This document shows, piece after piece, positions 21,330 to 49,842 of a stretch of DNA of 64,000 nt; positions within the stretch are counted from its first letter, which is position 1; each line of letters starts with the position of its first letter. The position numbers and the translations under genes are program-made. This DNA comes from Eledone cirrhosa (lineage: Eukaryota): NCBI GenBank assembly GCA_964016885.1, contig OZ024740.1, forward strand, positions 102,176,001 to 102,240,000. The letters run 5' to 3'. The notes below the pieces were generated by a model that had not been told where the DNA came from, searched no databases, and saw nothing but the letters and a program-made list of their open reading frames with translations.

Positions 21330-21533
21330 ATATACATATATACATATATATATATATATACATATATATATATACATATATATATATATATGCATATATA
21401 TATATATATATATATGTATATATATATATATATATATATATATATGCATATGTATATATATATATATATGCATATGTATATATATATACATATATATATA
21501 TATATATATATAATATATATATAATATAGATGA

Positions 21534-21582
21534 GATTCTACAGGACTAGAACTGTTTCATTCTTTAGAAATCACCAGGAATC
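21534..21582 (-). ncRNA. Hammerhead ribozyme motif with mutated core (CUGGUGA) inside a 48-bp-arm hairpin
   Basis: Minus: GATTC CTGGTGA TTTCTAAAGAAT GAAA CAG TTCTAGTC CTG TA GAATC. Hairpin spans 21524-21630. Confidence 0.65.
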
Positions 21583-21695
21583 ATTTCTAAAGAATGAAAC
21601 TGTTCTAGTCCTGTAGAATCTCATCTATATCAAAACTTTTAGACTCTGTTTACGGTGGTTACCTCCGATTCAACCCGGAATAACGTATATATATA

Positions 21696-22034
21696 TCATC
21701 ATCATTTCATTTTACGTCTGCTTTTTCCCTGCTTGCAAGGGTGGGACGGGAACTGATTCTGGCTTGATTTCTACAGCTGGATGCCCTTCCTAACACCAAC
21801 CTCATTTACAGTGACTGCTGGGTGCTTTTTTGCTGTGGCACCTCCACGACCACTTTGCAGTGGAATGATAGGGACCCTAGTCCCTATCATCTCATTTCTA
21901 CAGCTGAGTAAACTGGAGCAATGGGAAATAAAGTGTCTTGCTCAAGGAAACAACACATCACCCGGTCTGAGAATTGAACTCACAACCTTTAGATTGCAAG
22001 GCCAATGCTCTAACCACTAAGCCATGTGCCTCCA
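21696..22034 (-). mobile_element. tRNA/CORE SINE type A
   Basis: Tail-to-tail with 21009-21329. Confidence 0.88.
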
Positions 22035-22296
22035 TATATATATATATATATATATATATATATATATATATATATATATATATATATATATATATATATA
22101 TGCATATGTATATATATATGTATATATATATATGTATATATATATATATGTATATATATATATATATATATGTATATATATATATGTATATATATATATG
22201 TATATATATATATATGTATATATATATGTGTATAAATATATGTGTATATATATATGTATATATATATATATATATATATATATATATATCTATAAT

Positions 22297-24213
22297 ATAC
22301 AGAATGGGGTTGTTCCGAAGGACTGGCATAGCAGCATCATCGTTAACTGTTATAAGGGTAAAGGAGACGCCCTAGATAGGAGTAACTATAGAGGCATTAA
22401 ATTAATCGACCAGGTCATGAAGGTCACGGAAAAAGTAATAGCGCAACTAATCAGAGAGAGAATTGACCTAGATGAAATGCAGTTCGGGTTTGTGTCAGGC
22501 AAAAGTACCACAGACGCTCTTTTCATAGTACGACAACTACAGGAGAAGTACCTAGCTAAAGGTAAACGCCTCTACTTAGCTTTTGTCGACTTGGAGAAAG
22601 CCTTCGACAGAGTCCCCCGCTCCATTATCTGGTGGGCTCTTAGAAAACTAGGCGTTGACGAATGGCTTGTGAGGGCTATACAAGCCATGTATAAAGAAAC
22701 AGTCAGCAAGGTTAGAATTAACAACGAATATAGTGAAGAGTTTAGCGTAAAAGTTGGCGTCCATCAGGGCTCTGTTCTCAGCCCACTACTATTTATTATT
22801 GCCCTTCAGGCTATAACAGAGGAGTTCAAGACAGGCTGCCCATGGGAACTCCTATACGCAGACGACCTGACACTCATAGCGGAATCAATGGCCGAGCTAG
22901 AGAAGAAATTCCAAACATGGAAGCACGGCCTAGAGTCAAAAGGACTTAAAATTAACCTGGCTAAGACCAAAGTACTAGTTTGTAGGAAAGAAAACAAGGC
23001 GGCGGTCCCTTCTGGGAAATGGTCGTGCTCGGTGTGTAGGAAAGGCGTAGGTAGAAACTCCATTTTATGTCCTAAATGCAAAGTATGGGTGCATAAAAGA
23101 TGTAGTGGGATCACAGGTAAGCTAACTAAGAACATAGATTTTACATGTGGCCGGTGCTCTGGTGCAATAAGTAGCAGCAAGTGCCCACAAAATACTAGCT
23201 CTTTCAATTGCGCAGAGGGTTCTATAGAAATAGTGGACAGCTTCCGTTACCTGGGCGATAAAATCAGCAGTGGGGGAGGGTGCTCTGAAAGTACTGTAGC
23301 TAGAGTCAGAACTGGTTGGAAAAAGTTCAGAGAGCTTATACCACTATTAGCTGCTAAAGGGTTCTCACTAAAAATGAAAGGCAGGTTGTACGATGCCTGC
23401 ATACGAACAGCAATGCTGCATGGCAGTGAGACCTGGGCATTGTGTGCAGAGGATATACGCAGACTAGAGAGGAACGAAGCTTGCATGCTCCGCTGGATGT
23501 GTAACAGTAATATACGTGAACGGCAAAGCATAAACGAACTAAGGAAAAAATTAGAGATAAGAGGGATCAGATGTTGTTTACTCGAGAGAAGGCTACGTTG
23601 GTATGGACACGTGATGCGCATGAAAGTCGATAGCTGTATAACAAAGTGCAGGGCAATAAAGATAGACGGTAGCCACGGAATAGGCAGACCTAGAAAAACC
23701 TGGGACGAGCTGATAAACTCCGACCTCACACACTTACACCTCTCCAAGACAATGTCACTGGACCGAGACCTTTGGCGGTACTCAGTAACAGAGAAGACCC
23801 GCCTTACCTAAATATATAGTAAAACCTACTCCAGCCAGTAGGCATCTCTAACAAAATACACCCCGTCCCACCACCCCCACCCCCACCCCCACCCCATCCA
23901 CACCACCCCGTTCTATGTAAAGTTATGTTCGTGCCGCGCCATCGAGGCCGAAACAAATGAGATCGTGTAGGTGTCACGACAAAAAAACACACAGTCCACG
24001 CTGTAATGTGGCCGTGTAGGCAACACGGTAAAAACCTCCCAGACCCACACTGTAAATGTGGTTGGTGTTAGGAAGGGCATCCAACTGTAGAAAACCTGCC
24101 AGACAGTCCTATACGAGCAAGACAATCACTCTTGCCTCAATTGGGACTACCCCCGTCCAAACCCATGCAAGCGTGGAACACGGACGTTAAACGTTGATGA
24201 TGATGATGATGAT
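22297..24213 (+). mobile_element. 5'-truncated RTE LINE (copy 2), RT frame open to stop at 23811
   Basis: Near-identical to copy 1 from IQNGVVP onward; starts and ends in (TA)n. Confidence 0.95.
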
Positions 24214-24377
24214 ATATATATATATATATGTATATATATATATATATGTATATATATATATATATATATATATATATGTATATATATATATATATATACA
24301 TATATATATATATATATATATGTATATATATATATATACATATATATATATATATATATATATATATATATATATAT

Positions 24378-47590: not shown

Positions 47591-48004
47591 ATTCGTAGGA
47601 AAGTGGAAAAACTGGGTGTAAGGAAGCTGTTAAAACAGCAAAATGCTGTGAAGGATAGAAATCAGCAGCTAGAAGTGAGTTGGCATGAAGAATTGATAGG
47701 AAGAAAGGAATAAAATGGATGAGAGGAGATCACATACATTTAAATACATTTATCAGCTTTCAGATCACCTGCAGTTTCGATGATTGTTGAAATTGTAGGC
47801 AGTCTGAAAACTGATAAGTGTATTTAAAAGTTTGTGATCTACTCTCATCCATTTTATTCCTTTCTTCCTATCAATTCTTCATGCCAACTCACTTCTAGCT
47901 GCTAATTTCTATCCTTCAAGGTAATGCTTTACCCAATGCCACTTCGACGGCATTTTGCTGTTTTAACAGCTTCTTTATGCTGAGTTTCCCATTTTCCTAC
48001 GAAT
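47591..48004. repeat. ~410-bp fold-back palindrome with ~29-bp indel in right arm
   Basis: AGCAGCTAGAAGTGAGTTGGCATGAAGAATTGATAGGAAGAAAGGAATAAAATGGATGAGAG mirrored exactly at ~47843-47903. Confidence 0.88.
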
Positions 48005-48334
48005 ATAAATATATAAAGCACATCATACACACACACTCACACATATATGCACCATGCTAGTGCAGCATGTCACCAAATATTTTGATAATTTAATAAATTC
48101 AAATAAAATAGATTAAAGTAAAATGAGATATGCATGTGTTTGGAATTCTGCATTCATGAATGTGTCTCAATTAATGGGTTCCCACCTGAGAATGCATACA
48201 TACATATACACAAATTTGCATATGTGCACAACATAGATATGTATATATGCATACACACACATACACATACTTCTTTACTTACAAATATGTAGGCACATCC
48301 TACTGACTACAGAACATATCTACCAGTTCACCCT

Positions 48335-48510
48335 TATCAATGACAAATATGTCATAAGATCTACAAGTCTAAAGGAGGTCTAAAGAGACATTTCAAAGTT
48401 CATAAAGATCAGACAACACAGGCAGTTTAAACTGCACCGAAACTAATGTGTAATTTGTATGAACTTTTTTTTAAAGTAAACCTGGTCTAAAAAGCCACAT
48501 GATATGCAAG
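48335..48510 (+). pseudogene. Decayed pair of C2H2 zinc fingers
   Basis: YQ*QICHKIYKSKGGLKRHFKVH, then LMCNLYELFF/KSKPGLKSHM with a stop and a frameshift. Confidence 0.6.
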
Positions 48511-49106
48511 ATGTATGTATGTATTATGCAGGTACACACTGATCACCACTAATTTTACTGATCTCCACAAACAGTCTGTTTTTTGTTGAATCACCAAATC
48601 TGACAAGCAGATTGATGCTGAGGTTGCATCCATCGCTTCCATAGGTGACATTGAGCTAATCATCTGTGAAACGTTTATAACAGGTCCATAAGCAATTAAA
48701 GCATGTAAATGAAACTTCATCATTGTTTTTTATTATATACACTCTCCCAGTGCATTGAGTGCTCATATTAGTACCACCACCAGTAATTCACTGAATCACC
48801 TATACTTTATATATATAATCATATATATTGTATATAATACACACACACATGTATGTCTAAATATGCATACACATACTTGTTCATGCATATATACATGCAT
48901 ATGCATGTATATATATATATATATATATATATATATATATATATATAAGGGATAACAAAATATCGTTATAAGTAATCCAGTTAGAGATTGTGAATACTTT
49001 GTATTGTGGATAGCTTTAGCATACAGCGTTGTTTGACTCAACAAGAGTTTTCCGTAGGTGGCGAGTTTATGAGTTCTCTTGAATTCCTATGCAAGTTTAT
49101 CTTACA

Positions 49107-49162
49107 TTGTTAGCTTAACCAGATCATCAGAAGGACTTCTGATGATCTGGTTAAGCTAACAA
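49107..49162. repeat. Perfect hairpin, 27-bp arms, GA loop
   Basis: TTGTTAGCTTAACCAGATCATCAGAAG GA CTTCTGATGATCTGGTTAAGCTAACAA. Confidence 0.9.
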
Positions 49163-49795
49163 CGTATTTAAAATTGAGTGGCACAGCTTCCAGTGTTCAG
49201 CAATCTTTAGACAACTTAATCAGTGAAACAATTGTTAATAGTGTAAATAAAACCCTTTTTTGTACTGTTGACCATTCTTTCAATATATATATATAAATAT
49301 ATATATATATATATATATATATATATATATATATATGTGTGTGTGTGTGTGTGTGTGTGTGTGTGTGTGTGTGTGTGTGTGTAGCACTCTCTAGACAAAG
49401 GAAGTAGCTAGAGTTACTTCCCGTACAATTTCAAGAATATTCCTTGAACTTCCGTTCTAGAGATTATAAAAGAAAGAGCAAAGGACAATCTCTCTCTCTC
49501 TCTCTTACCAGCAGGCTCTAGAACTGACCACACCAAGCACAGATATGTTAAGCTTTTTTCTAATCCTATCTTGTATCTCAGGATTACACCATATCATACC
49601 AAAATTATTACATCGTCATTTCTTTTACATCTTCTAAACAAATTAAATTAGTGGTTGGCATGTAGTGGTATTTACTGGAGTAGATAACCCTATGGCCAAT
49701 TCACTAAATATATATATTATGTAGATTCTGGAGTTGTCAGGTGGGGGGAGTAACCACAGTTAAAAAAGGTATTCAATACATTGATGGTGTATAGG

Positions 49796-49842
49796 CATCC
49801 TGATGATTTTATATGAATGAAACAGTTCTAGTCCTGTAGAAG
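49796..49842 (+). ncRNA. Degenerate hammerhead, same family as 21534-21582
   Basis: CATC CTGATGA TTTTATATGAAT GAAA CAG TTCTAGTC CTG TA GAAG. Confidence 0.6.

Follow-up and report, generated by a model that had tools for sequence, protein, structure and literature searches.

A two-strand nest of minimal hammerhead motifs in Eledone cirrhosa DNA, probably composed of truncated 3' ends of several Penelope-like element families

The 64,000-nucleotide stretch of Eledone cirrhosa DNA analysed here (assembly GCA_964016885.1, contig OZ024740.1, positions 102,176,001 to 102,240,000 of the forward strand; hereafter the window) carries a dense cluster of hammerhead ribozyme motifs on both strands, which by their cores and three stems are type I hammerheads, open at stem I. 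In an earlier reading of this DNA (the original prediction) they were taken for a population of non-autonomous ribozyme and fold-back elements that is mobilised by the proteins of Penelope-like elements (PLEs). We consider it likely that the motifs are the 3' ends of several PLE families, left by incomplete insertion into patches of TA repeat. A separate non-autonomous population is not needed; the ends of ordinary PLEs, when short, 5'-truncated and inverted, would look no different. Observed in the window are the motifs, two truncated PLE open reading frames (ORFs), the nearness of (TA)n runs and a number of head-to-head fold-backs.

The motifs were sought with a strict type I descriptor (CUGANGA, helix II, GAAA, a paired 15.2-16.2, UH and a stem I of at least 5 bp), the limits of which were fixed only after the motifs had been seen. 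It recovers seven motifs, exactly the sites labelled intact in the original prediction, and the cleavage positions given there (after 33003, 33779, 34976 and 41215) are all four exact. Dinucleotide shuffling of the window, a check proposed along with the prediction, does not reproduce this density: no match occurred in 198 of 200 shuffles of the whole window (mean 0.01), in 194 of 200 local 500-nt shuffles (mean 0.03) or in the reversed window sequence, and 173 of 179 permuted-core decoys likewise had none (mean 0.034). With counts so far above shuffles and decoys, a chance origin is rejected. Stem III is a perfect palindrome in five of the six loci with a 6-nt stem III (p ~1e-5), in line with the description of these stems as mostly tiny or palindromic, and since this feature was not used for selection it backs the reality of the motifs independently. 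A relaxed, scored scan gave 8 matches at a score of at least 12 (0.03 expected from 60 shuffles) and 11 at a score of at least 9 (0.38 expected). It adds a motif at +49139 (M) that is absent from the original prediction, as is a half motif at 37233 (H); a match at 54173 (mutated core, score 9.5) was rejected as noise. The seven intact cores lie within 17 kb and all are real, and they represent six separate insertions, because those at 40960 and 41153 are the two arms of a single 354-bp palindrome. Among the copies described as weakened, 21534 and 49796 are kept and reparsed as one family (K and J, for which stem III ACAG/CTGT with an 8-nt loop is the better parse), and 46166 passes neither scan and is doubtful. 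The features of the cluster are as follows.

19498..19540, plus strand: 3'-end stub of family H, starting within stem III and ending at a TA run; matches 37240-37282, with 29 nt identical
21524..21630, both strands: fold-back K, 107 bp (score 10.5; shuffle mean 0.12 at a score of at least 10); minus arm with a hammerhead of mutated core CTGGTGA (core 21577, predicted cleavage after 21539), plus arm with the 3' half of a hammerhead only
26720..26853, minus strand: hammerhead G, found by the strict descriptor (core start 26846, predicted cleavage after 26727; stem I 7 bp, helix II hairpin 101 nt, stem III CGATCG, GUA)
26849..27037, minus strand: dispersed repeat within G, resembling a short interspersed nuclear element (SINE) to judge by its many copies in the window
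32084..32686, plus strand: 5'-truncated PLE ORF with linker Zn-finger and GIY-YIG endonuclease, Nematis-like by eye
32964..33008, plus strand: hammerhead A (core start 32969, predicted cleavage after 33003; extra G after A9, helix II 6 bp, stem III GGAC, CUA)
33111..33176, plus strand: 3' terminus of family A, of which a second truncated copy (41398-41462, minus strand) ends at the identical base in (TA)n
33402..33970, plus strand: element B, made up of an inverted stub, an ORF-less unit and a repeat of the unit start, then (TA)n
33704..33784, plus strand: hammerhead B (core start 33709, predicted cleavage after 33779)
34919..34984, plus strand: hammerhead C (core start 34927, predicted cleavage after 34976; stem I 8 bp, stem III TATGTA, (TA)n 51 nt downstream)
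35873..37185, minus strand: 5'-truncated, frameshifted PLE of the Hydra clade with reverse transcriptase (RT, 36630-37172), CxCX5C linker and GIY-YIG domain
37186..37352, plus strand: fold-back H, a perfect 72-bp palindrome at the truncation point of the Hydra-clade PLE; holds half a hammerhead (GAAA CAATTG TT), then a 3' end reaching (TA)n
40915..41268, both strands: fold-back D, head-to-head 177-bp arms that form the 354-bp palindrome; an intact hammerhead on the plus arm (41153-41223, core start 41161, predicted cleavage after 41215) and on the minus arm (40960-41030, core start 41022, predicted cleavage after 40968), stem III TGCGCA, cores 139 nt apart
43798..43853, minus strand: hammerhead E (core start 43848, predicted cleavage after 43803; stem I 5 bp, stem III TATATA, (TA)n 51 nt downstream)
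46166..46237, minus strand: doubtful decayed motif F, with both core words, a stem I of 3 bp and an unpaired helix II base
49103..49238, plus strand: hammerhead M (core 49139, predicted cleavage after 49236; score 12, shuffle mean 0.03), with U-U and a 9-bp helix II base, stem III CAATTG, and a stem I of only 2 bp, cut by a 64-bp fold-back (49103-49166)
49798..49841, plus strand: fragment J of family K, 44 bp, with intact core and a stem I of 2 bp (predicted cleavage after 49838); alone it scores at noise level

C and D are related, with 17 identical nt over stem I and core, and their helix II and stem III sequences differ yet still pair. The 3' end of family A can be fixed at 33176 because the second stub ends there in (TA)n. 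In G, the SINE-like insertion is flanked by a duplication of ~14-18 nt that copies the CUGAAGA core, and the 5' arm of G is found a third time at 27284-27327. Upstream of G (27049-27327) there is also a duplication, 235 nt apart, of a 44-nt piece with the CUGAAGA core at its end; the first of these two copies has no 3' half after it.

The link to PLEs drawn in the original prediction is supported by the two PLE ORF remnants in the cluster and by a motif design like that of published PLE hammerheads. The first remnant (Pfam GIY-YIG, E=2e-4; endonuclease only) was compared by eye with the Fig. S2 rows of PMC8557442; it has 2714 relatives, including long proteins with RT-like regions, which came from an exhaustive protein search (a word-index search for the same endonuclease gave 0 of 218), and hammerhead A lies on the sense strand 283 nt past its stop codon. 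The second aligns with a 700-aa relative across both RT and endonuclease (E=6e-84), and its RT shares ~60% identity, counted by eye, with Hydra-1_Obim of Octopus bimaculoides and 41-51% with database relatives. It appears to belong to the Hydra clade by the motif criteria in the accessible parts of PMC8557442 (a CxCX5C linker, a divergent RT4(B) and no CCHH finger): its linker reads CSCRKPDKC, and its RT carries the motif GSYDSADVCDLVG. The RWK and DKT motifs fall outside the truncated window copy and are present in its best relative, P0001. An identity of ~60%, as judged by eye, suggests a family different from Hydra-1_Obim. Hammerhead C was considered as the 3' hammerhead of this neighbouring copy and rejected, being antisense to it.

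The second line of evidence concerns the surroundings of the motifs in a window of 35% GC that is rich in (TA)n and (CA)n, in copies of an RTE-type long interspersed nuclear element (LINE) and in dispersed short repeats. A TA run follows within 210 nt of every one of the 12 motifs and half motifs, as against 33% of random positions, and in C, D, E and M the distance from cleavage site to (TA)n is 46-51 nt. The ten loci are clustered in 28 kb (p=0.004 against uniform placement), and part of this clustering follows target density, because the p value weakens to 0.018 when loci are placed at merged TA islands and to 0.07 when they are placed at TA runs. The anatomy of B, D, H, K and M displays 5' truncation, an inverted 5' copy, a tail and a (TA)n target.

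From these features we infer an insertion mechanism that likely left both stumps and fold-backs. An RT/GIY-YIG protein would nick AT-rich (TA-rich) DNA, and reverse transcription would start ~35-190 nt downstream of the hammerhead; most cDNAs would end early, leaving a stump of 100-300 nt in which the hammerhead is kept and the ORF lost. A second, inverted and truncated copy would often be joined at the 5' end to give a fold-back, and each new end would renew the TA target, so that insertions of different families would accumulate inside one another on either strand. Within a parent element, cleavage by the hammerhead would take place as a dimer, via its palindromic stem III, or with the help of protein.

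The pattern recurs in comparator loci that were reached via PLE proteins in another organism, a choice that in itself favours linkage to an ORF. Among 40 metagenome loci related to the A endonuclease (ten of them with less than 130 nt of downstream sequence), seven carry a sense hammerhead 78-630 nt past the match and one an antisense hammerhead upstream. Five of eight Hydra-clade loci in genome contigs, which are animal-type elements inside prokaryote-labelled assemblies, have hammerheads; among viral contigs, 94 candidates for a Hydra-type RT yielded none that was confirmed. One genome locus, L045, has 7 hammerheads in 5.5 kb, on both strands and with two head-to-head pairs, and another, L047, has 4 unrelated hammerheads in 2.8 kb, each 46-55 nt ahead of (TA)n; for the comparator the distance from cleavage site to (TA)n is 32-60 nt, or 105-120 nt on a longer arm. 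The motifs come in local nests, because none occurs in 188 kb of the same assembly, sampled as 20 contigs at even spacing. One comparator family lies 106 nt past the ORF in L047 and L049 and stands as an orphan fold-back in L045 and L050, and because the same family is thus both ORF-terminal and orphan, a separate non-autonomous population is unneeded to explain orphans. The comparator thus shows a generic pattern; it does not supply a parent for every family of the window. L043 (1-5525) is a rearranged Hydra-clade PLE with a hammerhead, of 35-41% GC, that abuts bacterial-type genes of 57-61% GC in a 491-kb contig titled Denitrobaculum sp. MAG, which is either a chimeric assembly or a case of real transfer. 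The genome that supplied L044, L045 and L047 (G001) is labelled 'bacterium', and its 35 matches to a Hydra-clade PLE protein, together with (TA)n runs, suggest eukaryotic DNA in the genome collection.

Several observations weigh against reading the cluster as PLE ends, beginning with the choice of comparator just mentioned. Among the A relatives with at least 250 nt of downstream sequence, 23 of 30 show no sense motif by the descriptor used. The helix II regions in the window, which reach 51 nt (B), 79 nt and 101 nt (G), exceed any helix II of the comparator (11-24 nt). No Rfam hammerhead model matched in focused scans covering A, B, C and E (24 of 24 and 1 of 1 matches listed), and for the whole window none is found among the 150 of 255 matches listed, which are unrelated and include microsatellite-driven miRNA-type matches. 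Only A and H touch a PLE ORF, in agreement with the earlier statement that most copies have no adjacent ORF, and within the window no parent element is seen for C, D, E, G, K/J or M. The C/D-family pattern has 0 matches in metagenome contigs. The Hydra-clade copy has neither a hammerhead at its own 3' end nor a match there to the H end, and H, which adjoins it in inverted orientation, may belong to another family.

The rival that survives best, and which we nonetheless think unlikely, holds that most of the orphans are true non-autonomous families (non-LTR retrozymes or mini-PLEs) whose RNAs are transcribed, self-cleaved, circularised and then moved in trans by the proteins of PLEs. Published work includes retrozyme monomers that stem from PLE ends (bioRxiv 10.64898/2026.07.22.740005, accessible parts), and no PLE protein trace was found near C, D, E, G, K or M. 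Of 12 frames ahead of G, B and C, none matched a PLE domain in Pfam; one weak match to the C-terminal domain of the THAP9 transposase (THAP9_C, E=0.006, below cut-off) falls outside the elements, between A and B at 33178-33402. Against this, the orphans other than B keep ~60-300 nt upstream of the core, which is shorter than or similar to a PLE 3' untranslated region, so that a missing ORF is to be expected there; no tandem array with two same-strand hammerheads exists in the window; and in the comparator, orphans arise from an ORF-bearing family. The non-autonomous interpretation is left with the unit anatomy of element B, the other orphans being likely PLE ends.

Element B is the sole locus with the anatomy of a non-autonomous, ORF-less unit, and it looks possible as a candidate non-autonomous PLE or retrozyme. 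Its unit of 467 nt (33434-33900) holds no PLE ORF and is followed by a 70-nt copy of its own start (33901-33970), making ~1.2 units in all with one hammerhead, in which a 51-nt helix II has U-U at its base and stem III is CCCTCGG, with GUA. The 33-nt stub in front (33402-33434) is the reverse of 33859-33891, a sequence that ends 9 nt before the repeat, and because the source of the stub lies ahead of the part that is repeated, the template was probably longer than one unit; for the same reason we reject the 70-nt repeat as a host target duplication, the stub coming from within the unit. No PLE protein match was found for B and no Pfam match in its three plus-strand frames. The unit opens with a 47-codon frame that may be a relic of a PLE ORF start, and PLE tails overlapping ORF starts are described in the accessible parts of PMC3846280. 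On the hammerhead strand B folds strongly (z=-4.2 linear, with 0 of 100 shuffles as stable; z=-4.3 as a circle, 62% paired), and on the opposite strand it does not (z=-1.2), a result to be set against background tiles of which 3 of 30 also reach z -4 or lower, two of these with palindromes. Like the animal non-LTR retrozymes in the accessible text of PMC7229834 and of Li et al. 2026 (bioRxiv 10.64898/2026.07.22.740005), B is small, ORF-less and highly self-paired, with one type I hammerhead and a template of more than one unit; unlike them it lacks a tandem of at least two complete hammerhead units, its motif is minimal rather than canonical type I, and it is known from DNA only. There is one copy of B in the window. 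A search of sequencing runs listed 21 runs, of which 3 held at least half of the query words and none was an RNA run, and so offers no evidence on expression.

Element B likely arose by internal deletion and was copied, as a non-autonomous derivative, by PLE machinery. More tentatively, it could be one copy of an undescribed cephalopod derivative of this kind, a 467-nt structured hammerhead RNA circle spread by Hydra-clade PLE proteins, with some of the other orphans (those with helix II hairpins of 50-100 nt) as sister families that define a long-helix-II hammerhead variant. B and these long helix II variants are the residual leads from the window. Were B a circular RNA with many copies, the range of animal retrozymes would reach cephalopods, and the deletion junction of B would tie a retrozyme to a parent PLE, putting to the test the still open proposal that retrozymes derive from PLEs. 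How long a helix II a minimal hammerhead tolerates could naturally be tested on the motifs with a long helix II.

It has also been weighed whether the fold-backs are mobile units in their own right, i.e., palindromic hairpins that are copied whole and use the hammerhead for processing, which we hold to be very improbable. Such units would account for the near-perfect arms of D (99% identical) and H (100%) and for the four of ten loci that lie at fold-backs once decayed copies are counted; among intact loci the figure is one of six, so that the earlier description of several copies inside palindromes holds only for the wider count. The geometries differ, D and K being fully head-to-head and M, H and B having short 5' stubs; J and the stub at 19498 are members of families K and H without a fold-back; the fold-back centres of the comparator family differ between L045 and L050; and head-to-head palindromes are a described product of PLE insertion (PMC3846280, accessible parts). 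When 150 or 400 nt of the preceding sequence is included, the cores of D and M are predicted to be fully paired with a stem I probability of 0, D folding as one hairpin that buries the core, and the coupling of ribozyme to fold-back DNA that was proposed originally fares badly here, as in the tested fold-backs the fold of the ribozyme is predicted to be blocked rather than helped. This is the only strong result from folding, because folding programs handle hammerhead junctions poorly.

For the motifs where they now lie, the predictions otherwise show stem III forming no hairpin by itself in 7 of 9 motifs, stem III self-duplexes of -1.7 to -12.8 kcal/mol in all 9, and a stem I probability in context of at most 0.18 in all 9; the helix II of G folds at z=-5.7 and its stem I is not formed in the predicted ensemble. 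Short palindromic stems III of this kind would suit cleavage as dimers. Cleavage in place is predicted to be rare, and the stumps to be mostly inactive, because no family has a second intact copy on the same strand nearby and because the tested fold-backs would bury the core. The last alternative, a host regulatory array that cleaves a long transcript through the region, could appeal to the tight grouping of intact cores and its p value under uniform placement, but it is hardly credible in view of the use of both strands, the unrelated families, several broken copies, the SINE-like insertion in G, the loss of significance once clustering is conditioned on TA runs, the low predicted stem I probabilities, and the finding of no host exon (3 of 134 frames had weak Pfam matches, E ~0.009, all below cut-off).

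Reading the window as a nest of PLE ends places it among known systems, the comparisons below referring to the accessible parts of the cited papers. Metazoan minimal hammerheads occur as thousands of solo motifs per genome in many families, and as pairs on opposite strands at distances of 100-700 bp (Cervera and De la Pena 2014, PMC4209133), and the window motifs resemble these PLE-associated hammerheads in being type I with a short or palindromic helix III, in the extra base after A9 (in A), and in forming many unrelated families of mostly single motifs with an opposite-strand pair (the D cores); they differ in helix II regions of 51-101 nt as compared with 7-8 bp there, and are known from sequence. 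Craig et al. 2021 (PMC8557442, Files S1, S2, S7) describe copies that are inverted and 5'-truncated, tails, the targeting of (TA)n and a Hydra-clade hammerhead from octopus. The window shares with the Hydra-clade PLEs of that work the CxCX5C linker, divergent RT4, (TA)n insertion and a 3' hammerhead, in B, K/J and M the U-U at the helix II base and a stem III of the ACAG/CTGT type, and with Penelope-13_HM an inverted 5'-truncated copy at the 5' end; unlike the Hydra-1_oBim case, no window motif equals that hammerhead in a by-eye comparison, and element A is of another clade. Junction palindromes and solo pseudo-long terminal repeats (pLTRs) are described in PMC3846280; according to PMC11167929, RT initiates internally, targets are AT-rich, and the hammerhead is assisted by protein and is not needed for insertion in vitro. 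The window agrees with the insertions of these studies (Arkhipova et al. 2013; Frangieh et al. 2024) in head-to-head inverted ends, an optional tail at one end, solo termini and AT-rich targets, and departs from them in the length of the tail-like part of B (~79 nt, where theirs is 30-40 nt) and in target duplications that are unreadable in TA runs. U-U closure and dimer cleavage of hammerheads are covered in PMC3088659 and PMC6765202.

As to novelty, the suggestion that such elements are undescribed in this lineage is weakened, as the window RT resembles Hydra-1_Obim, the hammerhead of which is published; we found no cephalopod-wide hammerhead survey in the literature searched, most subscription papers being outside that search. 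The accessible text of the retrozyme study of Cervera and De la Pena 2020 (PMC7229834) mentions no octopus or cephalopod, that of Li et al. 2026 no cephalopod case, and that of a study reporting 31 recently active Penelope-like families in Octopus vulgaris (PMC13282606) no ribozymes. Solo motifs, motif pairs on opposite strands and the hammerhead of an octopus PLE are thus already known, and what the window contributes are further families within a class that is known. Where PLEs nest in (TA)n, a dense cluster of hammerheads on both strands can be just what is expected, so that cluster density alone should not count as a new system.

The window holds other repeats besides. An RTE-type LINE with a PHD-like finger inside its RT ORF is present as 5 copies or fragments on both strands, mostly 94-96% alike (15522-18343, 22300-23811, 24888-26474, 27637-28872 and 44440-45302). 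Beside D lie two fold-backs without a hammerhead, one with a 46-bp perfect palindrome inside 18-bp inverted ends (41501-41617) and the other a 212-bp TA-rich palindrome (41762-41973), and an old 426-bp inverted repeat at 47585-48010, with arms 76% identical, is also without a hammerhead and resembles a miniature inverted-repeat transposable element (MITE). At 10173-10892 and 21007-22036, a 330-bp repeat that has a tRNA-like head forms head-to-head pairs around TA runs, and a tandem array of 47-bp period, with copies ~95% identical, occupies 51338-53222.

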